Source: a virus
Lineage: Duplodnaviria > Heunggongvirae > Uroviricota > Caudoviricetes
Virus record (IMG/VR): IMGVR_UViG_2700989428_000001
Direction: 5' to 3' (one strand)
DNA: 11,666 bases
In this document: positions 1 to 11,666 of the stretch, in pieces
How the letters are laid out: each line of letters starts with the position of its first letter
Position numbering within the stretch: the first letter of the stretch is position 1
Position numbers and translations under genes: made by a program
The notes under the pieces: model-generated
What the model was told of the DNA's origin: nothing
The model's database searches: none
What the model saw: the letters and a program-made list of their open reading frames with translations, nothing else

Positions 1-651
1 ACCGTCTGCGGTTTTACGCTCCAGTTCCAGGTAAAACGCCATATGGTTGATACCTGCGCAACGGTAACGCAGCGTAGCCGGGTCGATATTGAGGTCACGC
101 GCCAGCTCTTCCGCCGTTCCCTGCACCGAATGGCACAGCCCTACCTGCTTGATATGCGGATAGCGGGCATACATCGCCCAGGTATTCATCGCCATTGGAT
201 TAACGTAGTTGAGCATGGTGGCATCGGGGCAGACTTCCGTCATGTCCTCGCAAATTTGCCACAGGTGCGGAATGGTACGTAGCGCGCGCATAATACCGCC
301 CGGCCCCAGCGTATCGGCAATGGTTTGTTCCAGACCATGCCGCTTACAGACCTCGAAATCAGTCACCGTGCAAGGTTCATAACCGCCAATCTGAAATGCC
401 ACCACCACAAAATCAGCATCCTGTAAGGCTTCTTTCTGTTGGGTGTGGCAGGTGATTTTGCCGCTGGCCCCTGCTGAATCCATCAGCTTACGCACCACAA
501 TGTGCGACTCTTCCAGGCGGGTGGGATCGATATCCATCAGGGCAATATGCGCCGTTTTCAGCGCCTCACGATGGAACACATCACCAAGAATATTTTTAAC
601 GAAAATCGTCGAACCAGCGCCGATAAATGTAATTTTAGGTGCAGACATCAT
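1..651 (-). CDS. melA: alpha-galactosidase (melibiase), N-terminal ~217 codons; 3' end lies beyond the window start
   Basis: Reverse-complement translation from 651 reads MMSAPKITFIGAGSTIFVKNILGDVFHREAL..., with the Rossmann GAGS motif of family 4 glycosidases and matching E. coli MelA as I recall it. AGGAG sits 6 nt upstream of the ATG on the minus strand. The frame stays open to position 1. Confidence 0.9.
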   Translation of the reverse strand, partial: MMSAPKITFIGAGSTIFVKNILGDVFHREALKTAHIALMDIDPTRLEESHIVVRKLMDSAGASGKITCHTQQKEALQDADFVVVAFQIGGYEPCTVTDFEVCKRHGLEQTIADTLGPGGIMRALRTIPHLWQICEDMTEVCPDATMLNYVNPMAMNTWAMYARYPHIKQVGLCHSVQGTAEELARDLNIDPATLRYRCAGINHMAFYLELERKTADG

Positions 652-934
652 GCAGATCTCCTGGCTTGCTTGAATGACTTCATCATGGCAGGCGATATCG
701 CAGAAAACCTCCGGTTTCCCGGTTGAGCATTCCCAAAAACTCAGATCCTAAGTGGCACATCAATAGATCTGAGTTTATGGGAATAAATTACCTGAAAAGC
801 TGAATAATCGACCCCAGTCTTCTCATCCGCTCTCCTCGCACCTCCAGGGAGAGAAATAAAAACCGTGCGCCTGTTCGCAGTCATCCTCCCTCACTCCTGC
901 CATAATTCTGATATTCCAGGAAAGAGAGTCATCC
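652..934. promoter_or_regulatory. divergent melAB / melR promoter region (expected MelR and CRP operator sites)
   Basis: 283-bp non-coding gap between divergently oriented melA and melR. Established knowledge places the MelR sites and CRP sites of both promoters here. Individual sites were not mapped; only the palindromes listed separately were seen directly. Confidence 0.5.
737..776. promoter_or_regulatory. perfect 11-bp inverted repeat (aaactcagatc ... gatctgagttt) with 18-bp spacer in the mel control region
   Basis: Arms at 737-747 and 766-776 are exact reverse complements. Location is about 90-125 bp upstream of the melA start. It may correspond to a pair of inverted MelR half-sites or another operator, but this is not resolved. 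Confidence 0.35.
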
Positions 935-1849
935 ATGAATACAGATACGTTTATGTGCAGCAGCGACGAAAAGCAGACCCGTAGCCCACTGTCGCTGTAT
1001 TCAGAATACCAGCGGATGGAAATTGAGTTTCGCGCACCGCATATCATGCCCACCAGCCACTGGCATGGTCAGGTCGAAGTGAATGTGCCTTTCGATGGCG
1101 ATGTGGAATACCTGATCAACAATGAAAAAGTGAATATCAATCAGGGTCATATCACGCTGTTCTGGGCCTGTACACCGCACCAACTAACAGATACCGGAAC
1201 CTGTCAGAGCATGGCGATTTTTAATCTGCCGATGCATCTGTTTCTCTCCTGGCCGCTGGATAAAGACCTGATTAACCACGTCACTCACGGCATGGTGATC
1301 AAATCACTGGCGACACAGCAACTTAGCCCGTTTGAAGTGCGCCGCTGGCAGCAGGAATTAAACAGTCCGAACGAGCAAATTCGCCAGCTCGCCATTGATG
1401 AAATTGGCCTGATGCTCAAGCGATTTAGCCTCTCTGGCTGGGAACCGATTCTGGTCAATAAAACCTCGCGCACACACAAAAACAGCGTCTCGCGCCATGC
1501 CCAAACTGATCGGCATTACAGCCAGATGCTGGGCTTTATTGCCGAAAACTATGATCAGGCGCTGACCATCAACGATGTGGCTGAGCACGTCAAACTTAAC
1601 GCCAACTATGCAATGGGGATATTCCAGCGGGTCATGCAATTGACGATGAAACAGTACATTACCGCGATGCGCATCAACCACGTTCGCGCGTTACTGAGCG
1701 ATACCGATAAAAGTATTCTCGATATTGCCCTGACGGCAGGCTTTCGTTCGAGTAGCCGTTTTTACAGCACGTTCGGCAAATATGTCGGCATGTCGCCGCA
1801 ACAATACCGCAAACTTAGCCAACAGCGCCGCCAGACGTTTCCCGGCTAA
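935..1849 (+). CDS. melR: AraC/XylS-family transcriptional activator of the melibiose operon
   Basis: 304-codon ORF beginning MNTDTFMCSSDEKQTRSPLSLYSEYQRMEIEFRAPHIMPTSHWHGQVEV..., with a C-terminal AraC-type double HTH (..ALTAGFRSSSRFYSTFGKYVGMSPQQYR..). It is divergent from melA, as in E. coli. Confidence 0.9.
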   Translation: MNTDTFMCSSDEKQTRSPLSLYSEYQRMEIEFRAPHIMPTSHWHGQVEVNVPFDGDVEYLINNEKVNINQGHITLFWACTPHQLTDTGTCQSMAIFNLPMHLFLSWPLDKDLINHVTHGMVIKSLATQQLSPFEVRRWQQELNSPNEQIRQLAIDEIGLMLKRFSLSGWEPILVNKTSRTHKNSVSRHAQTDRHYSQMLGFIAENYDQALTINDVAEHVKLNANYAMGIFQRVMQLTMKQYITAMRINHVRALLSDTDKSILDIALTAGFRSSSRFYSTFGKYVGMSPQQYRKLSQQRRQTFPG

Positions 1850-2047
1850 AGACGATATCAGTATCAGCCAAAAAAATAGTTTAGCCGTCGATAATAAGCA
1901 GTGAAAATAATTTAAAATAATCACATAACGTATTGTTTATAAAAATAAATATTTCAAAAATGTTTGTTTTTCACGCGCTTTACAGCCCGAAAAGGCCGGA
2001 AGATACTTGCCCGCAACGAAGATTCCTTCATAACCGGGTAAGCAATG
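1850..2047 (+). promoter_or_regulatory. AT-rich adiA upstream region (expected acid/anaerobiosis-responsive adiA promoter)
   Basis: About 200 bp of AT-rich non-coding sequence (aataatttaaaataatcacataacgtattgtttataaaaataaatatttcaaaaatg) between the melR stop and the adiA start. Promoter elements were not mapped. Confidence 0.3.
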
Positions 2048-4344
2048 ATGAAAGTATTAATTGTTGAAAGCGAGTTTCTCCATCAAGACACCTGGGTCGG
2101 TAACGCCGTTGAGCGTCTGGCAGATGCTTTAAGCCAGCAAAATGTTACCGTGATTAAATCCACCTCCTTTGATGATGGTTTTGCCATTCTCTCTTCAAAC
2201 GAAGCCATTGACTGCCTGATGTTCAGCTATCAAATGGAACATCCGGACGAACATCAAAACGTCAGACAATTGATCGGTAAGCTTCATGAGCGCCAACAAA
2301 ACGTGCCGGTCTTCCTGTTGGGCGATCGGGAAAAAGCCCTCGCCGCAATGGACCGGGATCTGCTGGAGCTTGTCGATGAATTCGCCTGGATTCTGGAAGA
2401 TACCGCCGACTTTATCGCCGGACGCGCCGTTGCCGCGATGACCCGCTACCGCCAGCAGCTATTGCCGCCACTGTTCAGCGCGCTGATGAAATATAGCGAC
2501 ATCCATGAATATTCCTGGGCAGCGCCAGGCCACCAGGGCGGCGTTGGTTTTACCAAAACACCCGCCGGACGTTTCTACCATGACTATTATGGTGAAAATC
2601 TGTTCCGCACCGACATGGGTATCGAACGCACTTCCCTCGGTTCTTTGCTTGACCATACTGGCGCATTTGGCGAAAGCGAAAGATATGCCGCACGCGTATT
2701 TGGTGCCGATCGCTCCTGGTCGGTAGTCGTCGGTACTTCCGGCTCTAACCGCACCATCATGCAGGCTTGCATGACCGATAACGATGTAGTGGTCGTTGAC
2801 CGTAACTGCCATAAATCCATCGAACAAGGCTTGATGCTGACAGGCGCGAAACCGGTCTACATGGTGCCAAGCCGCGCTACAAGGTCTACATGGTGCCAAG
2901 CCGCAACCGCTACGGCATTATCGGGCCAATCTATCCGCAGGAAATGCAACCTGAAACCTTGCAGAAGAAAATCAATGAAAGCCCGCTGACCAAAGACAAA
3001 GCCGGGCAAAAACCGTCTTACTGCGTGGTGACCAACTGCACCTATGACGGCGTGTGTTATAACGCTAAAGAAGCACAGGATCTGCTGGAAAAAACCTCCG
3101 ATCGTCTGCACTTTGACGAAGCCTGGTACGGCTATGCACGTTTCAACCCGATCTATGCCGATCACTATGCCATGCGCGGCGAACCTGGCGATCACAACGG
3201 TCCTACCGTTTTCGCCACCCACTCCACCCACAAACTGCTGAATGCGCTGTCACAGGCCTCTTATATTCATGTACGTGAAGGTCGTGGGGCGATTAACTTC
3301 TCCCGCTTCAACCAGGCCTACATGATGCATGCCACCACCTCCCCGCTGTATGCCATCTGCGCATCCAACGACGTGGCGGTGTCGATGATGGACGGCAACA
3401 GCGGCCTGTCACTGACCCAGGAAGTGATCGACGAAGCGGTTGATTTCCGTCAGGCGATGGCGCGGCTATATAAAGAGTTCACCGCTGACGGTAGCTGGTT
3501 CTTCAAACCGTGGAACAAAGAAGTCGTCACCGACCCACAAACCGGCAAAACCTATGACTTTGCTGACGCACCAACCAAACTGCTGACCACCGTTCAGGAC
3601 TGCTGGGTCATGCATCCGGGCGAAAGCTGGCACGGCTTCAAAGATATTCCGGATAACTGGAGTATGCTCGACCCGATTAAAGTCAGCATCCTTGCTCCGG
3701 GAATGGGTGAAGATGGTGAACTGGAAGAAACCGGTGTTCCGGCGGCGCTGGTCACAGCCTGGCTTGGTCGCCACGGCATTGTGCCTACCCGTACCACTGA
3801 CTTCCAGATTATGTTCCTGTTCTCTATGGGCGTGACCCGTGGGAAATGGGGGACTCTGGTTAACACCCTTTGCTCCTTCAAACGCCACTATGATGCCAAC
3901 ACACCGCTGGCGCAGGTGATGCCGGAACTTGTTGAACAATATCCTGACACTTACGCGAACATGGGGATTCACGATCTGGGTGACACCATGTTTGCCTGGC
4001 TGAAAGAAAACAACCCTGGCGCACGGTTGAATGAAGCCTATTCCGGCCTACCGGTGGCGGAAATCACCCCGCGTGAAGCGTACAACGCGATTGTCGACAA
4101 CAATGTCGAACTGGTATCCATTGAAAATCTGCCAGGACGTATCGCGGCAAACTCAGTTATCCCGTATCCGCCAGGAATCCCGATGCTGCTGTCTGGTGAA
4201 AACTTCGGCGATAAAAACAGTCCGCAAGTAAGTTATTTACGCTCGCTGCAATCCTGGGACCATCATTTCCCTGGATTTGAACACGAAACAGAAGGGACAG
4301 AAATTATTGACGGTATTTACCACGTTATGTGTGTGAAAGCGTAA
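2048..4344 (+). pseudogene. adiA: biodegradative arginine decarboxylase, frameshifted by a 29-bp insertion at 2876-2904
   Basis: ORF 2045-2989 encodes the N-terminal ~277 residues (MKVLIVESEFLHQDTWVGNAVERL...LTGAKPVYMVPSR) and then runs out of frame into a stop. ORF 2890-4344 in another frame resumes MVPSRNRYGIIGPIYPQEMQ... through the C-terminus ...IIDGIYHVMCVKA. Removing 29 bp restores one 755-codon frame (2297 - 29 = 2268 nt = 756 codons including stop). Confidence 0.85.
2854..2904 (+). repeat. imperfect tandem duplication: 22-bp unit ggtctacatggtgccaagccgc twice (2854-2875, 2883-2904) separated by 7-bp filler gctacaa
   Basis: Read directly from the sequence. The period is 29 bp, not a multiple of 3. 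The filler resembles the downstream native cgctac, suggesting a templated or slippage-type event. Confidence 0.85.
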
Positions 4345-4360
4345 CCACTATTCCGCTGAA

Positions 4361-4387
4361 GGCGTAATTGTTAAATAACATTACGCC
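4361..4387 (+). other. imperfect hairpin just 3' of the adiA stop
   Basis: ggcgtaattgtta / taacattacgcc arms form a ~12-bp stem with one bulge. No U-tract follows, so it is a structured 3'-UTR element rather than a clear terminator. Confidence 0.3.
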
Positions 4388-4461
4388 GCCTGGCTTGAGG
4401 CCTTTTAAGTATGGCAACGTTTTCATAAAAATTGCTGCAAACAAAAAATGTCATGCTTTTT

Positions 4462-4488
4462 GCGCGGTCCCACCCCGCGCTTTTTTTT
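4462..4488 (+). terminator. rho-independent terminator downstream of adiA
   Basis: GC stem gcgcgg (4462-4467) / ccgcgc (4475-4480) with 7-nt loop tcccacc, followed by T8 (4481-4488). Confidence 0.6.
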
Positions 4489-4560
4489 GCCTGTTATTTA
4501 TCCTTTTTTGCCTGTTATTTATCCTTTTTTTAGCCTGTTATTTATCCTTTTTTTAGCCTG
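4489..4560. repeat. tandem repeat array, about 3.3 copies of a 21-23-bp unit gcctgttatttatcc(t)6-7(a)
   Basis: Copies at 4489-4509, 4510-4532 and 4533-4555, plus a partial copy gcctg at 4556-4560. It starts immediately after the terminator T-tract. Confidence 0.8.
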
Positions 4561-4563
4561 TAA

Positions 4564-4632
4564 AAAAATATGTACATGAGAAATTACTATAAAAATTTGT
4601 ACATGAGAAATTACTATATAAAAATTTGTAAT
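4564..4632. repeat. tandem repeat, about 2.4 copies of a 27-28-bp unit aaaaat(a/t)tgtacatgagaaattactat(a)
   Basis: The 20-nt core tgtacatgagaaattactat is identical at 4571-4590 and 4598-4617 (period 27). A third partial copy taaaaatttgta follows at 4619-4630. It lies in the adiY upstream region. Confidence 0.75.
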
Positions 4633-4752
4633 ATTAGTAAAACTCGTTATTTTTATGCATGTTTATATTCATCATACAATTATATAACCATTTCCCGGTA
4701 TCGCTTCGCTTTAGCGAGAACTGGTCTTTTATTCGCACTCAGGAGTACATGT

Positions 4753-5514
4753 ATGAGGATTTGCAGCGACCAACCTTGTATTGTTTTATTGACTGAAAAA
4801 GATGTCTGGATAAGGGTGAATGGGAAAGAACCTATTAGCCTTAAAGCTAACCACATGGCGTTATTAAATTGTGAAAATAATATTATCGACGTCTCCTCTC
4901 TTAATAACACTTTGGTTGCTCATATTAGTCACGACATCATCAAAGATTACCTCCGGTTTCTGAATAAAGATCTCTCGCAAATACCAGTATGGCAACGTAG
5001 CGCTACGCCCATCCTCACCCTTCCATGCCTGACGCCAGACGTCTTTCGCGTTGCCGCGCAGCATAGCATGATGCCCGCTGAAACTGAGTCAGAAAAGGAA
5101 CGAACACGTGCATTATTATTCACTGTGCTATCCCGTTTTCTCGACAGTAAAAAATTCCTTTCACTAATGATGTATATGTTACGTAATTGTGTAAGTGACA
5201 GCGTTTATCAAATTATTGAAAGCGATATCCACAAAGACTGGAATCTTAGTATGGTAGCCAGTTGTTTATGTCTTAGCCCAAGTCTGTTAAAGAAAAAGCT
5301 GAAAAGCGAAAACACCAGTTATAGCCAAATAATCACCACCTGCCGCATGCGTTATGCCGTAAATGAATTAATGATGGACGGTAAAAATATCTCTCAGGTA
5401 TCACAGTCCTGCGGCTACAACAGTACGTCGTACTTTATTTCTGTCTTTAAAGACTTCTACGGTATGACGCCGCTGCATTATGTTAGTCAGCACAGAGAAC
5501 GCACTGTCGCCTGA
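4753..5514 (+). CDS. adiY: AraC-family transcriptional regulator of the adi system
   Basis: 253 codons beginning MRICSDQPCIVLLTEKDVWIRVNGKEPISLKANHM..., with AGGAG 7 nt upstream of the ATG at 4753 and a C-terminal AraC-type HTH. The six-frame ORF from 4570 is an in-frame 5' extension through the repeat region and is not the real start. Confidence 0.88.
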   Translation: MRICSDQPCIVLLTEKDVWIRVNGKEPISLKANHMALLNCENNIIDVSSLNNTLVAHISHDIIKDYLRFLNKDLSQIPVWQRSATPILTLPCLTPDVFRVAAQHSMMPAETESEKERTRALLFTVLSRFLDSKKFLSLMMYMLRNCVSDSVYQIIESDIHKDWNLSMVASCLCLSPSLLKKKLKSENTSYSQIITTCRMRYAVNELMMDGKNISQVSQSCGYNSTSYFISVFKDFYGMTPLHYVSQHRERTVA

Positions 5515-5650
5515 TTTTTAACCTTAACGAAGAGCTATATTAATAACGGCATCAGCGATAACCCGGCCGATAATAATTCAACTATCGAATGCAGGCGTAT
5601 GATATGACGTAATTTATTGTCACGAAGCTCGCCTTCGCAGGAGTTTAATT

Positions 5651-6228
<578 letters not shown>

Positions 6229-6229
6229 T

Positions 6230-6307
<78 letters not shown>

Positions 6308-6316
6308 TTGCAGATA

Positions 6317-6706
6317 TTACTCTTTTTTCTCCGTATCTGCATCGGGTTCATCAGCAAATAGCTTGCCCTGCATCCGATCCAGTTCTTCTTTTCTTACCCG
6401 CTTAACCACGCTGTAGACCCACTGAAGCGAAACACCAAATTTGCGGGCCAGTTCGTGGTGGTTGCGTCCGTTAAACTCCCTGAAGATTTCCCGGTCGCGC
6501 TGACTGACCTTCCATACCATGCCCATCGGGAAATAAACGTTTTGCCCGCCCCAGACCTGCATCATTCGGTTCGCGACGGCCTGACCAATCTGGTCGGCAA
6601 CTTCGGGCTCAATATCAATAATCTCGCGAACGGTCTCAGAGGTATGCTGTGCCAGTTCCACCAGGAGTTCCGGCCCCTTACTTCGAAACTGATTCAGGTC
6701 GCTCAT
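6317..6706 (-). CDS. Mor/C-family-like small transcriptional activator (middle-operon-regulator position)
   Basis: 129 codons (MSDLNQFRSKGPELLVELAQHTSETVREIIDIEPEVADQ...FNGRNHHELARKFGVSLQWVYSVVKRVRK...), with GGGAG 6 nt upstream. Size, acidic N-terminus, C-terminal HTH-like segment and position after a GemA-like gene fit Mu Mor. The assignment is from recall, not a search. Confidence 0.55.
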   Translation of the reverse strand: MSDLNQFRSKGPELLVELAQHTSETVREIIDIEPEVADQIGQAVANRMMQVWGGQNVYFPMGMVWKVSQRDREIFREFNGRNHHELARKFGVSLQWVYSVVKRVRKEELDRMQGKLFADEPDADTEKKE

Positions 6707-7127
6707 GTTTGACTCCCGCAGCTCTGCGCTGCCACTTCTTCAGTTTCTCAATAACACTGCTTGCCTGTTCAGTACTGAGCCAGCGCAGGGCGCTGATGCC
6801 CGTTTCCCGCTTGATCCACCTCGCTAATGCATTTTCTGAACGGTCACGAACAATGCCGGCAGCAGCCATTTCAAGCCATAGCGCACGAATTTTCCTGGAC
6901 TGCGGATGGTTATCAAGCGGTAAACCGGAGCTGGCTTTTCTGGCTGGTTTAACGCGAAAGCCTTTCTTTTTCATGGATTCCAGCACGCAGTTTAGTTGTG
7001 TGGTATCCATTCCTTTGGTTGAGGCTTTACCGGTCAGCCCCTGTAACATCTGGCGGTAGGTGTCTTCATCCATACCCAGTTCATTACGGGCAATATGGAT
7101 AAGCTGTATCAGGCGTTTTTTCTGCAT
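6678..7127 (-). CDS. GemA-like (Mu gp16 / DUF1018-type) regulatory protein
   Basis: 149 codons (MQKKRLIQLIHIARNELGMDEDTYRQMLQGLTGKASTKGMDTTQLNCVLESMKKKGFRV...), with GGAG 5 nt upstream. Its 3' end overlaps the next gene by 29 nt. Position immediately upstream of the Mor-like gene is as in Mu. Confidence 0.5.
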   Translation of the reverse strand: MQKKRLIQLIHIARNELGMDEDTYRQMLQGLTGKASTKGMDTTQLNCVLESMKKKGFRVKPARKASSGLPLDNHPQSRKIRALWLEMAAAGIVRDRSENALARWIKRETGISALRWLSTEQASSVIEKLKKWQRRAAGVKHERPESVSK

Positions 7128-7128
7128 A

Positions 7129-7335
7129 TCATCTCCTTTTTTTCAGTCTGTCGGCAACAATGTCGGTTGCAGCTGGCAGGGTGACTGGCCAGAACAACAT
7201 GACGGCGGTCATGTACAGGATGTAATGCGCGGTGTCGTAGTGCCTGCCATAGCCCAGGGAACGATGAAGTCTTGCGCTGCATGATCCTGCGTACATATAC
7301 CAGAAAAGAAAACAGACAATGGTTTCAGTAGTCAT
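7129..7335 (-). CDS. small hydrophobic (membrane) protein, 68 aa
   Basis: Internal start MTTETIVCFLFWYMYAGSCSARL... is preceded by GGAGG with an 8-nt spacer. The stop is 1 nt before the GemA-like ATG. The 120-codon six-frame ORF is probably an over-extension. Confidence 0.4.
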   Translation of the reverse strand: MTTETIVCFLFWYMYAGSCSARLHRSLGYGRHYDTAHYILYMTAVMLFWPVTLPAATDIVADRLKKRR

Positions 7336-7555
7336 TCTGAATACCTCCCCATTCGATATGAATATTACGGGCAGCAATGACAGGGTCGTTATTCCACCAT
7401 GCACCTGACATGTATTTTTCAACCTGTTCGCGTCCGGCAATAACACCAATTGTGATCCCCGGCCTGACGTTCTTAAAAAAGGCGCGGGCAAAAAGGTATC
7501 TGGCAGATATTCGGCAGGCTTTTAATTTCCGGCTTTTACCTGATAGCGTAATCAT
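7325..7555 (-). CDS. hypothetical protein, 76 aa
   Basis: MITLSGKSRKLKACRISARYLFARAFFKNVRPG.... Its ATG overlaps the upstream stop as ATGA, GGAGG lies upstream, and its 3' end overlaps the next start by 11 nt. Confidence 0.4.
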   Translation of the reverse strand: MITLSGKSRKLKACRISARYLFARAFFKNVRPGITIGVIAGREQVEKYMSGAWWNNDPVIAARNIHIEWGGIQNDY

Positions 7556-8235
7556 CTGGCCTCCAGTTTCTGTTGTTCCTGCCCACTGACCGGGCGGTGC
7601 AGTCTGACGTTCTGCCCTTCACGAAACCCCGCATAGCGCGAGGCGTCGCCATTGCGGCTTCTTCCCGGTTTACGCGCCCTGGTGGTTTGCGTCTGCGGGT
7701 ATTTATGTTCCAGCCACTGCTGCATCAGTTCACGCTCATCATCGGTCAGGGCAAAGGACTGTATTTCACTGATAACGGCCAGCACCCAGCCTTCGGCAAA
7801 CTGGTCTCCACGGCTGGTGCGGGTGGCGGTTTTTATTCTTTTGTTCTGTGCACTGATATACTGCTGACGCGCCTTTTTCAGCTGACGGGCCAGCACTTCC
7901 CAGGTGTATGCAGCCAGTGCCGCACGTTCCCGGTTGCCGTAGAACCCCACAGACGGATGCGTGCCGGGGTGAATGATGGAGTTAACACCAAATACCTCGC
8001 GGATGATGTTCATCAGGCCCAGCATGTAGCGCGGTGGACGGAGACTGCCTGTCGGCCAGTAGTGACTGATGGTTTCATCAATATCACTCATAGCAATGTC
8101 GGAATGTGTGATGCCGTGAACATCCATCAGTTTACGGGCTCGGCGCAGTGCCAGAGCGGCCTCGTGCGGGTTGCCGGATGCGGCCAGCGCCAGCAACTTT
8201 TTCAGTTTCTCAATGTGTTTATTCTGGTCTGTCAT
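7552..8235 (-). CDS. hypothetical protein with DUF2786-like N-terminal helix (KLKKLLALAASGNPHEAALALRRARKLM), about 227 aa
   Basis: Start chosen at the ATG at 8235, which overlaps the upstream stop as ATGA; the six-frame ORF extends 12 codons further to 8271 with no SD. The basic C-terminal tail is rich in R/K/Q. Confidence 0.5.
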   Translation of the reverse strand: MTDQNKHIEKLKKLLALAASGNPHEAALALRRARKLMDVHGITHSDIAMSDIDETISHYWPTGSLRPPRYMLGLMNIIREVFGVNSIIHPGTHPSVGFYGNRERAALAAYTWEVLARQLKKARQQYISAQNKRIKTATRTSRGDQFAEGWVLAVISEIQSFALTDDERELMQQWLEHKYPQTQTTRARKPGRSRNGDASRYAGFREGQNVRLHRPVSGQEQQKLEAR

Positions 8236-8447
8236 TGTTCTGTATCTCCGGTATTTTTCTGCCGTTTCCATGCCCGGACAGCGTCGGACAGCTCTTTCAG
8301 GCTGTATGCTGCTTTAAGCTTTTCCCATAACCACTGTGTTGTTATGTGCATCAGCAGGGCAGCCAGGGCTGCCCCCGCACTGAGGCATGTCGCCAGGCCA
8401 GTAAGAATCAGTGTCCATGCGGTGATTTCCCTGAGTATGTCAGCCAT
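8232..8447 (-). CDS. small membrane protein, 71 aa (one predicted TM segment LILTGLATCLSAGAALAALL)
   Basis: MADILREITAWTLILTGLATCLSAGAALAALLMHITTQW..., with GGGAGG 6 nt upstream of the ATG. Confidence 0.45.
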   Translation of the reverse strand: MADILREITAWTLILTGLATCLSAGAALAALLMHITTQWLWEKLKAAYSLKELSDAVRAWKRQKNTGDTEQ

Positions 8448-8461
8448 TGAATGCCTCCCGG

Positions 8462-8758
8462 TTACTCGTTCGTGTAAATCACGCCCAGTCGTGCAGCCAG
8501 ACGTTCCAGTTTTTTCTGTTTGTGGAAGTCAATCAGCCGGTCCATCCCCTGAAGGCGCAGTTGCTCTGTCATGATTTCCACGTCTGCCAGCTCTGCCGCG
8601 AGGTCACTTTCGCTGCCCTGTCCGTTCAGGTTGCGGGCGGCACTGGCCGCCAGTTCAGCGGCCTCTTCTGCCAGTTTCAGGGCCTGTGCGTCCGGCCCGA
8701 AACGCTGCAGGGCCAGACGGTAGAGGGCGGTGCGGGTGAGTTCGGTGTTTCGTGTCAT
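8462..8758 (-). CDS. MazG-like all-alpha nucleoside triphosphate pyrophosphohydrolase domain protein, 98 aa
   Basis: MTRNTELTRTALYRLALQRFGPDAQALKLAEEAAELAASAARNL...DLAAELADVEIMTEQL.... The paired motifs LAEEAAEL and AAELADVEI resemble the metal-binding EExxE ... ExxD helices of MazG/HisE-type NTP-PPases. GAGGG lies upstream. Confidence 0.45.
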   Translation of the reverse strand: MTRNTELTRTALYRLALQRFGPDAQALKLAEEAAELAASAARNLNGQGSESDLAAELADVEIMTEQLRLQGMDRLIDFHKQKKLERLAARLGVIYTNE

Positions 8759-8767
8759 GCCGCGCCC

Positions 8768-9040
8768 TCAGTGCTTCCGGCTGACGGTGATGTGCAGGCC
8801 GCCTTCTGCAGTGGTTTCCATCCGGTACGGCACCTCATGCTCTGCCGTGTGGGTGAGTGTGTTCATCAGTACCTGCAGGGCAGCCTCCTTTCCGTTGGTC
8901 GCCACAATGGCCTGTGTGGCCATGCTGATTAGCGCCGTCAGGACGTGCTTCACATCGGTGAGGTCGCGGCATTCACACTCGTTGACATAGTGTTCAACAA
9001 GAGTTCGGGTGCGCTGTCGTGCTTCCTGTGGGGTAATCAT
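8768..9040 (-). CDS. hypothetical protein, 90 aa
   Basis: MITPQEARQRTRTLVEHYVNECECRDLTDVKHVLTALISMATQ.... GGGAGG is 7 nt upstream, and the ATG overlaps the upstream stop as ATGA. Confidence 0.45.
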   Translation of the reverse strand: MITPQEARQRTRTLVEHYVNECECRDLTDVKHVLTALISMATQAIVATNGKEAALQVLMNTLTHTAEHEVPYRMETTAEGGLHITVSRKH

Positions 9041-9231
9041 TGCGCGTCCTCCCTGTCAGGGCGGGAGAATTCCATGACGGGCACGTCCGCCGAAAAATGC
9101 TGGCTGCAGTACGGGCAGACCAGGGTGACACGTACTGCAGGTATGTGATACTTACCGGACATCACGGCGATGGCGCTGTGAAAACGCAGGGCTGTTATAT
9201 CCCTCTCGCACTGAATACATTTAAATATCAT
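9037..9231 (-). CDS. small zinc-ribbon-like protein, 64 aa (CxxC ... CxxC)
   Basis: MIFKCIQCERDITALRFHSAIAVMSGKYHIPAVRVTLVCPYCSQHF..., with Cys pairs CIQC and CPYC about 30 residues apart. Strong SD GAGGAG with a 9-nt spacer. Confidence 0.45.
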   Translation of the reverse strand: MIFKCIQCERDITALRFHSAIAVMSGKYHIPAVRVTLVCPYCSQHFSADVPVMEFSRPDREDAQ

Positions 9232-9251
9232 AATTTAATTCTCCTCTGTTT

Positions 9252-9284
9252 CCGGCGTGCAGAAGCCCGCGGCGCTGACGCCGG
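9252..9284. other. GC-rich hairpin in the only sizeable intergenic gap of the phage operon (between gam and the zinc-ribbon ORF)
   Basis: 7-bp stem ccggcgt (9252-9258) / acgccgg (9278-9284) with a further paired inner segment. It is flanked by AT-rich sequence and is not a canonical terminator in either orientation. Confidence 0.3.
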
Positions 9285-9328
9285 AATAAAAAAGAAAATG
9301 TTTTTATTAAATAATTAACGTGGTGTGT

Positions 9329-9859
9329 TTACTGCACATCCTGCTCAAAAGGAATTATTGAAAAATCCTCAATATCACTTTTTATGGTAATACCGGGAAT
9401 ATTTTTCACAGCCTCTTTTTCATTCAGAATGGCATCTTTATTTATTTCCTCCTTTACACGAATAAAGCGCTCAAGCCCCAGACGTCTCAGCAGTTCAATG
9501 ACATTATCCGCCCCGCGAATGCTGACTGACGGCGGACGGTTTCGCCACTGCACCTCGCCGGTGGTGAGGTTAGCGAACTTCACCTTCCCGTTGCCGGTCA
9601 GTTCATCACGGTGCGCCTCACACCATGTCTGGATACCGGACTGCAGTTCGGCCATGCGTTTTTTCAGGCTCTCGGTGAGCGGGGCATAACGTGCAGTGAT
9701 GTCGCCAATGGTGTCATTCATTTCTGTTTCAGCCCTGACCAGTTCACGTTGCGCGTCACCAAGCAGTCTGATTCCCTCAATGACCTCTTCGCGTGTCCCC
9801 GGCACCCAGAGTGCTGCTGCGGCTTTGATACGTTTTGCCCCTTTTGTACTTTTTGCCAT
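9329..9859 (-). CDS. gam: Gam-like host-nuclease inhibitor protein (Mu Gam family, DNA-end binding)
   Basis: 176 codons: MAKSTKGAKRIKAAAALWVPGTREEVIEGIRLLGDAQRELVRAETEMNDTIGDITARYAP...SVSIRGADNVIELLRRLGLERFIRVKEEINKDAILNEKEAVKNIPGITIKSDIEDFSIIPFEQ. This closely matches the Mu Gam family as I recall it. GGAGGAG 9 nt upstream. Confidence 0.8.
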   Translation of the reverse strand: MAKSTKGAKRIKAAAALWVPGTREEVIEGIRLLGDAQRELVRAETEMNDTIGDITARYAPLTESLKKRMAELQSGIQTWCEAHRDELTGNGKVKFANLTTGEVQWRNRPPSVSIRGADNVIELLRRLGLERFIRVKEEINKDAILNEKEAVKNIPGITIKSDIEDFSIIPFEQDVQ

Positions 9860-9886
9860 ATTTTATGACTCCTCCTGTTGTGCTGA

Positions 9887-10156
9887 TTACCACAAAGATT
9901 CCGGCCACACGACGCGACAGCCGTGCAGTTCGAAAACGCCCTGACGGAAATGTCCCCTGTGGTCATGACCGGTATACAGATAACAGGCCTTTCCCTGCTC
10001 AAGCATGCGCATGCAATGCGCACTCCGGGAAACGCGGATGACAGGTTTGTTACCCCTGATGGTGATGCTTTGTACATCCGTGTTCGTCGCCTTAAGCGCC
10101 ATAATGGCTGACTGCACTTTGCTGATTTGCTGGTTGATACCTGTGGTGGATTTCAT
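9887..10156 (-). CDS. hypothetical protein, 89 aa, in the position of Mu kil (between B and gam); His/Cys-rich C-terminal half
   Basis: MKSTTGINQQISKVQSAIMALKATNTDVQSITIRGNKPVIRVSRSAHCMRMLEQGKACYLYTGHDHRGHFRQGVFELHGCRVVW. It starts 2 nt after the B-like stop. Function is unknown. Confidence 0.45.
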   Translation of the reverse strand: MKSTTGINQQISKVQSAIMALKATNTDVQSITIRGNKPVIRVSRSAHCMRMLEQGKACYLYTGHDHRGHFRQGVFELHGCRVVWPESLW

Positions 10157-10158
10157 TA

Positions 10159-11325
10159 TTAAACCCCTTTGACAACGTCAGCGTTGACCTGTGGAACCCC
10201 GATTTCAGCGGCCAGATTCATGGCGGCTATTACCAGGTTACTGACGGCCAGCGGATACAGCAGGCTGACCATATTTTTACGATGACTTCCCGGATTGCTC
10301 AGGCGGGCACGTATGGCATCCACTGCGCTGGCGTCCATAATGTCCGTCAGTTGTTTACCGGCCCGTTGCAGTTTGAACGTCAGAAACTCTTCAAGGTTAT
10401 TGTCCAGAGGCAGAAGTTCGACCACCTCACAGCGCTGAACGACTTCACGGACTTCCATATTGCGTTCAGACAGTTTTGTCGCCAGTTCCGGCTGGCCAAT
10501 CAGCACGATGGACAGCAGTTTTTTGAAACCGGACTCCAGCTCAAAAAAGCGTTTGAGGTGTTTCAGTGTCGGAATGGGCAGACTGTGGGCCTCCTCAATC
10601 ACCAGAACGTGGCTGAACCCCGCCTGGCTGCTGTCTTTCAGGACGCGATGCAACTGGCGAAAGCGGGCGTCCTGACTGCGTCTGATGCTTTCCAGTGGTG
10701 CGATGGTACTGATAATGGCTTCGGCAATCGCTGCTGCCTTCAGGGTTTTCCCTTTCACATCGTTGTCTTCCATAGCGATGATGTATGGCTCGATAACAAT
10801 TACCGGCGCATTCTCGCGGTTGATACGTTCAGTCAGGTCGCGGCGCAGCGTGGATTTACCCGCACCGGACTCACCGATGACGGCCATAAACCCACCATGA
10901 CGGGCTGTCTGGTACAACGCCTCACGCACGTAGCGAATATCCGGGGTGGTGAACACATCATCAGAACCCTGCATGGCTTCGTCGGCGAACGGGTCACGGA
11001 AAAGACCAAACGCTTTTTTGGTTGCTGGAAATAACACCTGTTTTTTGAGTAACATATTCTCTTCCTCACTGAGGCTCGTTTTATCTGTGGTACCCGCTGT
11101 ACGGGGCGTGGCCGCGCCCTGTACAGCATCAAAACTCTTCGTTGTATCAATCCCCTGACTTTCCAGCCAGGACGCAAGACGCCGGCGCACTTCTCCGGGG
11201 CTGGTGCGGGGCCACGCGTTATGATTCACAATCTGGGCCAGCGTGGCCTCAGAAACATCGACAGCTCTCGCCACCACCGCCTGTGGAATACGGGCCTCTT
11301 TCAGTTGCTGCTTCAGTACCAGCAT
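10159..11325 (-). CDS. Mu B-like transposition ATPase (AAA+ target-DNA activator) with N-terminal HTH-like segment
   Basis: Walker A GESGAGKS, Walker B-like hhhhIEEAH (HVLVIEEAHSL), and an N-terminal IPQAVVARAVDVSEATLAQIV HTH-like stretch. ATG at 11325 is preferred because GGAGG lies 5 nt upstream; the six-frame track starts at a GTG at 11364. It directly follows a transposase-like ORF. Confidence 0.7.
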   Translation of the reverse strand: MLVLKQQLKEARIPQAVVARAVDVSEATLAQIVNHNAWPRTSPGEVRRRLASWLESQGIDTTKSFDAVQGAATPRTAGTTDKTSLSEEENMLLKKQVLFPATKKAFGLFRDPFADEAMQGSDDVFTTPDIRYVREALYQTARHGGFMAVIGESGAGKSTLRRDLTERINRENAPVIVIEPYIIAMEDNDVKGKTLKAAAIAEAIISTIAPLESIRRSQDARFRQLHRVLKDSSQAGFSHVLVIEEAHSLPIPTLKHLKRFFELESGFKKLLSIVLIGQPELATKLSERNMEVREVVQRCEVVELLPLDNNLEEFLTFKLQRAGKQLTDIMDASAVDAIRARLSNPGSHRKNMVSLLYPLAVSNLVIAAMNLAAEIGVPQVNADVVKGV

Positions 11326-11335
11326 GTTTCCCTCC

Positions 11336-11666
11336 TCAGTTGCCGTTAACAATGCTGATAACACTGCTGCGGGCCGGTGTGGTCAGCGTGGCCATGACTT
11401 CATCCAGTGCGGCTTCCGGTACGCCGTCCGGGTACTGTGCCGTTAACTGGCGGTAATGTTCCGGCGTCCAGGTAAGGCCGTCGGCGCTGAACTTATCGCG
11501 CAGGGCTTTCGCGGCCTCCACATGAGTCATGGGACGTTGTTCAGTGCGCGGCCCGCGTACGTCAGAGGCCTGACCACGCTTCGGCATATAGGCCGGAAGT
11601 GTGGTGTCGTCGATATGTTTATACGGGTCAAGCCGCCCGCCGAACGGCAGCGCCTTCGCCTTGCTT
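11336..11666 (-). CDS. C-terminal ~110 codons of an upstream gene, probably Mu A-like DDE transposase (partial; 5' end beyond window)
   Basis: The frame is open from the window edge to the TGA at 11336-11338 (...LDPYKHIDDTTLPAYMPKRGQASDVRGPRTEQRPMTHVEAAKALRDKF...SVISIVNGN*). The call rests on position immediately upstream of the B-like gene; no catalytic motifs are visible in this fragment. Confidence 0.45.
   Translation of the reverse strand, partial: SKAKALPFGGRLDPYKHIDDTTLPAYMPKRGQASDVRGPRTEQRPMTHVEAAKALRDKFSADGLTWTPEHYRQLTAQYPDGVPEAALDEVMATLTTPARSSVISIVNGN

Follow-up and report, generated by a model that had tools for sequence, protein, structure and literature searches.

A 29-bp duplication that splits adiA in the Escherichia coli TOP379 draft assembly is most likely not a feature of the organism

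In the draft assembly of E. coli TOP379 the gene adiA, coding for the biodegradative arginine decarboxylase, is split by an imperfect tandem duplication of 29 bp. Most likely the organism itself lacks this duplication: the data presented below argue with good probability for an assembly, gap-closure or consensus artefact of the TOP379 draft. On the same contig, the interruption of adiC by a BcepMu-type transposable prophage is well-supported biology of the locus.

Source contig and data sets

The stretch of DNA analyzed (the window, 11,666 bp) is the entire contig AOQB01000082.1 of GCA_000397225.1, the draft assembly of E. coli TOP379 released in 2013. TOP379 is a clinical isolate, reportedly from the recurrent-UTI cohort of Chen et al. 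2013. The gene order in the window is melA' (minus strand), melR, adiA, adiY and adiC', followed by phage genes; an Rfam scan of the window yielded no structured RNA at the gathering score. In the taxonomy list, TOP379 stands immediately ahead of TOP382-1, TOP382-2 and TOP382-3, in a batch comprising 25 or more "TOP" strains, and AOQB01 has been named as E. coli TOP379 in print (PMC5060011).

The population comparison covered 5,426 complete E. coli genomes, 5,410 of which carry adiA. Gene products were looked up in a 153-billion-gene index that includes the Logan read-level assemblies of public runs. For comparison within the clone, the reference UPEC132, the sister contig L005 and Logan contigs from runs SRR6537xx were used.

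The duplication in adiA and its effect on the reading frame

As deposited, adiA extends from position 2045 to 4344 on the plus strand and is split into an N-fragment of 314 aa (2045-2989) and a C-fragment of 466 aa (2944-4344). Within it, the 22-nt unit GGTCTACATGGTGCCAAGCCGC occurs on the plus strand as copy 1 at 2854-2875, which is in the native frame and encodes ...(P)VYMVPSR, and again as copy 2 at 2883-2904, which is read in the +2 frame. The two copies are separated by a 7-nt filler on the same strand, GCTACAA (2876-2882), which is not in any reference. The unit has two exact matches in the window, both on the plus strand, and since none of 200 dinucleotide shuffles produced any match to the 22-mer, the pair is not due to chance. 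At the junction the window reads ...CCAAGCCGCGCTACAAGGTCTACATGG... where the native sequence is ...CCAAGCCGCAACCGCTACGG...; the strings GTGCCAAGCCGCGCTACAAGGTCTACATGGT and GTGCCAAGCCGCAACCGCTACGGCATTATCG are diagnostic for the duplicated and the native arrangement, respectively.

The net change against the closest references is a 29-bp insertion. When positions 2854-2882 are removed, an adiA ORF is obtained whose DNA is identical to the adiA of UPEC132 and L005, and the repaired AdiA aligned to PDB 2VYC, the solved E. coli enzyme, over residues 1-755 (E=0). A sequence-only reading of the window had described an imperfect tandem duplication of 22+7 bp, adding 29 bp and shifting the adiA frame; for the sequence as deposited its coordinates were exact, and alignment to the reference adiA gave the single 22-mer copy and the 755-codon ORF that it had predicted.

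The deposited frame follows the native ...GAKPVYMVPSR to the end of copy 1 and then continues through 37 wrong-frame codons (ATRSTWCQAATATALSGQSIRRKCNLKPCRRKSMKAR). The frame is broken after AdiA residue 277 and the stop codon, at 2987-2989, lies 28 codons beyond copy 2; the distance of 28 codons given in the sequence-only reading is correct when counted from the end of that copy. The native frame reopens as an ORF that runs to 4344, with an ATG at 2944 as the start of the 466 aa. The STHK motif with Lys386 (numbering by identity to PDB 2VYC), which we take to be the catalytic PLP lysine of AdiA, is located downstream of the lesion and is out of frame as deposited.

The intact adiA of the sister contig matches three domains: PF03709 (N-terminal wing), PF01276 (PLP major domain) and PF03711 (C-terminal domain). 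The N-fragment of the window matches PF03709 and PF01276, and the C-fragment matches PF01276 and PF03711. The earlier statement that the PLP fold lies downstream of the lesion is thus right for the STHK lysine motif but not for PF01276 as a whole, which is split and is matched by both fragments. The three-domain architecture, the full-length identity and the melR-adiA-adiY-adiC context all identify the gene as adiA; an unbroken frame through the STHK motif is the one expected property that the deposited sequence lacks.

Copies left by fresh slippage are perfect, stand head to tail and have the microhomology as their join. In the native sequence the 22-mer is flanked on both sides by AACC, so that the unit is bounded by a direct repeat, but perfect copies joined through microhomology were not found: slippage on AACC would be expected to give the join GCCGC-AACC-GGTC and a perfect 26-bp duplication, whereas the actual join is GCCGC-GCTACAA-GGTC. 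Extended by the two bases that follow, the filler becomes GCTACAAGG and looks like a degenerate restart of the unit (GTCTACATGG). No template of at least 11 nt for the filler was found on either strand of the window, the 18 kb reference or the phage locus, where only chance-level 10-mers occurred; a quasi-palindrome or other templated mutation from local sequence was rejected on these grounds. The event had been called small and clean; this description does not hold, as slippage would have yielded the perfect 26-bp duplication and GCTACAA is without a local template.

Distribution of the adiA allele

A 43-nt probe spanning the junction had no match in the 5,426 complete E. coli genomes, and the native single-copy arrangement was present at the lesion site in 5,410 of the 5,410 genomes carrying adiA. 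In the gene index, Logan included, the 314-aa product was found on AOQB01000082.1 only. A repeat-driven tangle of the assembly graph was ruled out, the native 81-nt stretch being single-copy (median of 1 place per genome).

Truncated AdiA N-fragments of other kinds (P0026 and P0027) occur in other lineages, each with about 100 contigs; the presence of such alleles speaks against an artefact. In other contigs sharing the 466-aa C-fragment, adiA has an N10 scaffold gap (nt 814 or 844) or an additional A (nt 824). A lesion hotspot in adiA was not concluded from these, since the look-up itself favours lesions located just upstream of the start codon of the C-fragment.

Other private anomalies on the contig

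Positions 1-6160 of the window were compared with UPEC132 and, independently, with L005. Five events only were found, with zero isolated SNPs: the insertion of an A at 858, the replacement of 12 by 18 nt in melR, the 29 bp added to adiA, and insertions of 44 and 29 bp in the adiA-adiY spacer. They span approximately 3.8 kb (858-4616), and the contig has none in its remaining 7.9 kb. A set of five indel or complex changes within 3.8 kb, with no SNP among them, is not what accumulating mutations yield.

The additional A at 858 (plus strand) extends an A-run in the melA-melR intergenic region from AAAA to AAAAA. At 1501-1518 (plus strand), the native 12 nt of melR, GCAATTTTATGT, are replaced by the 18 nt CCAAACTGATCGGCATTA, which changes QFYV to QTDRHY in frame. 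The resulting 304-aa MelR variant was found in the gene index on this contig alone. No template of at least 11 nt for the patch was identified in the window, the 18 kb reference or the phage locus. An ectopic or foreign source for the melR 20-mer was also discarded: among 185,579 species genomes there was a single match, to an unrelated MAG, about as many as chance would give.

Both spacer insertions, on the plus strand, are repeats of local sequence. In the 44 bp added at 4489-4532, the 23-nt unit GCCTGTTATTTATCCTTTTTTTA is present three times, with one copy of 21 nt, and GCCTGT bounds the unit natively. The 29 bp added at 4588-4616 consist of a 27-nt tandem duplication and an extra TA, with TGTA as the native boundary. 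The melR patch and the spacer duplications were absent from the approximately 5,400 complete E. coli genomes. The spacer repeats do not represent a natural VNTR, as more than one copy was found in no complete genome and none in the sister contig.

The untemplated 7-nt filler in adiA, the spacer copy that is 2 nt short and the extra TA are not predicted by simple slippage, which is in favour of an artefact. The short native direct repeats bounding each unit (AACC, GCCTGT and TGTA) are as in genuine slippage and count against one.

adiC is interrupted by a transposable prophage

The adiC gene (5651-6160, plus strand) is truncated after approximately 168 of its 445 codons by a prophage end, leaving a 169-aa product. 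The gene is cut at 6154/6155 by a 5'-TG phage end (5'-TGATTAGACTTGAG...). From 6154 to 11666, on the minus strand, lies the early region of a BcepMu-type prophage, with genes for Mor, GemA/gp16, Gam, a MuB-like ATPase and the start of a DDE transposase. Every prophage gene on the contig points towards the end at 6154, a layout that corresponds to the BcepMu arrangement of Mu-like phage. The DDE transposase, MuB-like ATPase, Gam, Mor, the TG terminus and the occurrence of copies at different sites place the element among the Mu-like phages, for which 5'-TG...CA-3' termini and near-random insertion are expected.

A single genome holds up to 4 matches to the prophage query, and 619 genomes cover at least 80% of it. 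The 5.5-kb prophage part of the window is 100% identical to copies that unrelated E. coli carry elsewhere in the genome. In ETEC L4_E1441 a lambdoid tail gene is interrupted by a complete copy of approximately 37 kb, which has tail genes of the P2-like type and an invertible tail-fibre segment; the phage ends are identical in adiC of the TOP379 clone and in this tail gene. The 100% identity of 5.5 kb of the contig to copies in complete genomes is a point against an artefact; the rest of the contig being clean, the assembly is not uniformly poor. The interruption of adiC, in the same window, had been missed by the sequence-only reading.

Clone-mates and read-level assemblies

The 169-aa truncated AdiC, a rare marker specific to the clone, was found on 11 contigs, namely the window, four NCBI/ENA contigs of 20-50 kb and seven Logan contigs (SRR6537xx). 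All assemblies of the clone, seven independent read-level ones among them, carry the adiC lesion, which is real because the same product is encoded by the sister contigs and the seven Logan contigs.

The sister contigs with the same adiC::prophage junction are without any of the five events. L005 begins at the same melA start base as the window and is identical to it through the phage part; it has a 302-aa MelR, an intact AdiA called at 756 aa and the native spacer. Logan contigs L007 and L008, from runs of the clone, are native across the spacer; L006, which stands for one class of Logan contigs, has its start within the second spacer event (window position 4601) and is native there as well. 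The 304-aa MelR and the 314-aa and 466-aa AdiA fragments were found in none of the SRR6537xx assemblies, which are from runs of the clone. For the adiA lesion this read-level evidence is strong, though indirect.

At the adiC/phage junction, L005 reads GATTAGAC-CTGGTTCCG-AGATGAAATG. This is contradicted by GATTAGACTTGAGATAAATG, which is present at the junction in the window, in four Logan contigs and at the phage end of a complete genome. The L005 string equals a column-wise merge, in which the phage base is kept where both are present and native adiC bases appear as extra columns; it is clearly the outcome of calling a consensus from a mixed or misaligned pile-up at this breakpoint. With this error in L005, each assembly of the clone has its own private errors, in different places.

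Origin of the duplication

The sequence-only reading had left three origins side by side: a recent slippage or templated mutation, a sequencing or assembly artefact, and an engineered lesion. The artefact is now clearly favoured: the event is confined to a single assembly, with neither close relatives nor the population carrying it, it belongs to a cluster of other private anomalies without SNPs, the sister contigs are native, and a consensus error does occur in a sister assembly of the batch. We infer that the insertion arose at an assembler step. Short de novo contigs over melR-adiA-adiY may have been joined or gap-filled, or a misaligned pile-up may have made the consensus. Truly overlapping sequence ends would then have been placed end to end, separated by some junk bases, which would leave a short direct repeat with filler, and the same process could have generated the other four private anomalies. 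The true adiA of TOP379 would be the intact 755-codon gene, as in the sister isolates.

That the duplication is a real, isolate-specific mutation, in either of two forms, is improbable, though not to a negligible degree. Most of this modest weight falls on a TOP379-specific adiA mutation, by slippage or template switching between the AACC repeats with some mis-synthesised bases, tolerated after the loss of adiC; taken singly, we consider it unlikely. The native AACC on both sides of the 22-mer is in its favour, as are the true inactivation of adiC in the whole clone, by which selection on adiA would relax, and the occurrence of adiA pseudogenes, seen as truncated N-fragments in other lineages. 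However, slippage on AACC predicts 26 bp in perfect copies and not 22 bp with GCTACAA, the gene is intact in sister isolates of the clone, the 314-aa product is in no Logan read-level assembly, and the contig carries four more private non-SNP anomalies, among them a melR replacement without a plausible simple mutational origin. In the other form all five events would be real, produced by a local burst of error-prone, template-switching synthesis over approximately 3.8 kb, perhaps by repair synthesis following a break or the phage integration 1.5-5.3 kb away. The events are alike in that most of them are short, imperfect tandem duplications, and all of them lie in 858-4616, beside the prophage end at 6154; but the clustering is only weakly significant (approximately 0.05, roughly estimated for five uniformly placed events confined to 3.8 of 11.7 kb) and the spacer is native in the read-level contigs examined. 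Moreover, the sister isolates have the same prophage insertion and none of the events, so that integration itself was not the cause. We know of no bacterial process that gives this spectrum without base substitutions, nor of any such signature described in bacteria. A burst of this kind is therefore very improbable.

An engineered lesion, or the footprint of a transposon or recombinase, would account for a small, discrete insertion in a gene of experimental interest. The insert consists of a local copy and 7 nt, with no FRT, lox or vector scar; the isolate is clinical, and further anomalies lie in intergenic DNA that would not be a target. To our knowledge, a target duplication of 22 bp fits no common IS or transposon. 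The engineered origin proposed in the sequence-only reading found no support in scar or vector sequence, and we regard it as extremely improbable. Integration of the kind seen in CRISPR adaptation was also considered and does not fit an insert made of local sequence and 7 nt only.

Implications for arginine-dependent acid resistance

Loss of the antiporter AdiC alone abolishes arginine-dependent acid resistance. Judging from the position of the transposable phage in adiC, the recurrent-UTI clone should lack this resistance. A survival assay at pH 2.5 with arginine, suggested in the sequence-only reading as a check, cannot tell a real from an artefactual adiA lesion because adiC is disrupted clone-wide. 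If the adiA lesion were real, it would be one more slippage-type frameshift pseudogene, in a clone already without adiC. The preferred reading, an artefact of the draft, makes the contig a warning on data quality: it invites the calling of an adiA pseudogene and of a novel 304-aa MelR in a uropathogenic reference isolate, and both calls are probably wrong.

Comparison with known systems

The element in adiC resembles BcepMu-type prophages in its early operon, which points to the nearer end and in the complete copy precedes P2-like tail genes, in its 5'-TG terminus and in the presence of GemA; on this contig it is seen by one end only.

The duplication itself may be compared with slipped-strand duplications, such as those at lacI-type hotspots or in polA or rad27 flap-processing mutants. 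In these, as here, short direct repeats bound the unit and lengths of 20-30 bp are typical; unlike these, every event on the contig is imperfect, and the adiA join has GCTACAA instead of AACC.

Natural pseudogenes of adiA, found in E. coli and Shigella lineages that have lost arginine-dependent acid resistance (AR3), share with the window a truncated adiA reading, and N-fragments are common in public assemblies. Such pseudogenes, however, recur on many contigs per lineage, whereas the TOP379 allele is a singleton absent from its clone-mates.

Join, gap-closure and pile-up errors of short-read assemblies differ from the present case in some respects: there is neither an N-run nor another explicit sign of joining, and the duplicated lengths of 22, 21/23 and 27 nt correspond to no fixed k-1, although two of the events have a net length of 29 bp. 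In other respects the likeness is close. A direct repeat with junk filler is expected of abutted overlapping ends, and errors of this class are, as found here, private to one assembly, clustered in their sites, and in disagreement with the sister assemblies and, at the spacer events, with the read-level assemblies.

Interruption of adiC by the prophage

The truncated adiC gene occupies window 5651-6160; the 5'-TG end of the prophage cuts it after about 168 codons. Because the window shares the identical adiC/prophage junction with its sister contigs and with seven read-level assemblies from Logan, the interruption of adiC is a real lesion. This lesion alone should be enough to deprive the clone of arginine-dependent acid resistance.

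At the same junction, the sister contig L005 carries a mosaic sequence, GATTAGACCTGGTTCCGAGATGAAATG (L005:6046-6075), in which the phage end and native adiC are merged column by column. Since the mosaic is contradicted by the window and by four Logan contigs, it is clearly an artefact of pile-up consensus.

Private changes in the melibiose region and in the adiA-adiY spacer

In melR, a stretch of 12 native bases has given way to 18 unrelated ones (window 1501-1518). The replacement is private to the window contig and in frame; it turns QFYV into QTDRHY where the AraC-type HTH domain begins. A search for the source of the 18 bases found none; the replacement is probably junk consensus. In the melA-melR divergent promoter region, a private additional A in a run of four (window 858) is of the kind typical for a homopolymer-length error or a mutation.

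Two imperfect tandem duplications, likewise private to the contig, lie directly 3' of the adiA terminator and 5' of adiY. The first (window 4489-4532) consists of three copies of a 23-nt unit, one of them shortened; the second (window 4588-4616) consists of two copies of a 27-nt unit plus TA and has a net length of 29 bp, the same as that of the adiA duplication. Neither spacer duplication was found in about 5,400 genomes, in the sister contig or in the Logan contigs legible across the spacer.

Contig end within melA

The window contig and its sister contig L005 begin at the identical base, 651 nt into melA. The fact that both contigs start at one base within this single-copy gene suggests that the melA of this clone carries an interrupting repeated element, for instance an IS; the melibiose operon may therefore be broken too.

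Split adiA genes in other public contigs

Lesions were located at adiA nt 814-844 in three further public contigs whose adiA is split (L010:3930-3945, L012 and L014): N10 scaffold gaps in two metagenome scaffolds, and an additional A in one Logan contig. All of them lie within 35 nt of the adiA lesion of the window. These contigs had been retrieved through the C-terminal ORF, and the co-location is probably a selection effect of that look-up. They show, however, that assembly gaps account for many of the "split adiA" calls in public data.

The prophage and its copies in other genomes

One end and the early region of a BcepMu-type transposable prophage occupy window 6154-11666. Matches to this region were found at up to four places per genome, and at least 80% of it was covered in 619 genomes. 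The 5.5 kb of the early region are 100% identical to copies at other loci of unrelated E. coli; the prophage looks like an actively transposing phage in circulation among E. coli. A complete copy of approximately 37 kb is present in ETEC L4_E1441 (NZ_LR883012.1 3765037-3802400), where it lies within a lambdoid prophage, inside the latter's gpK-like tail gene.
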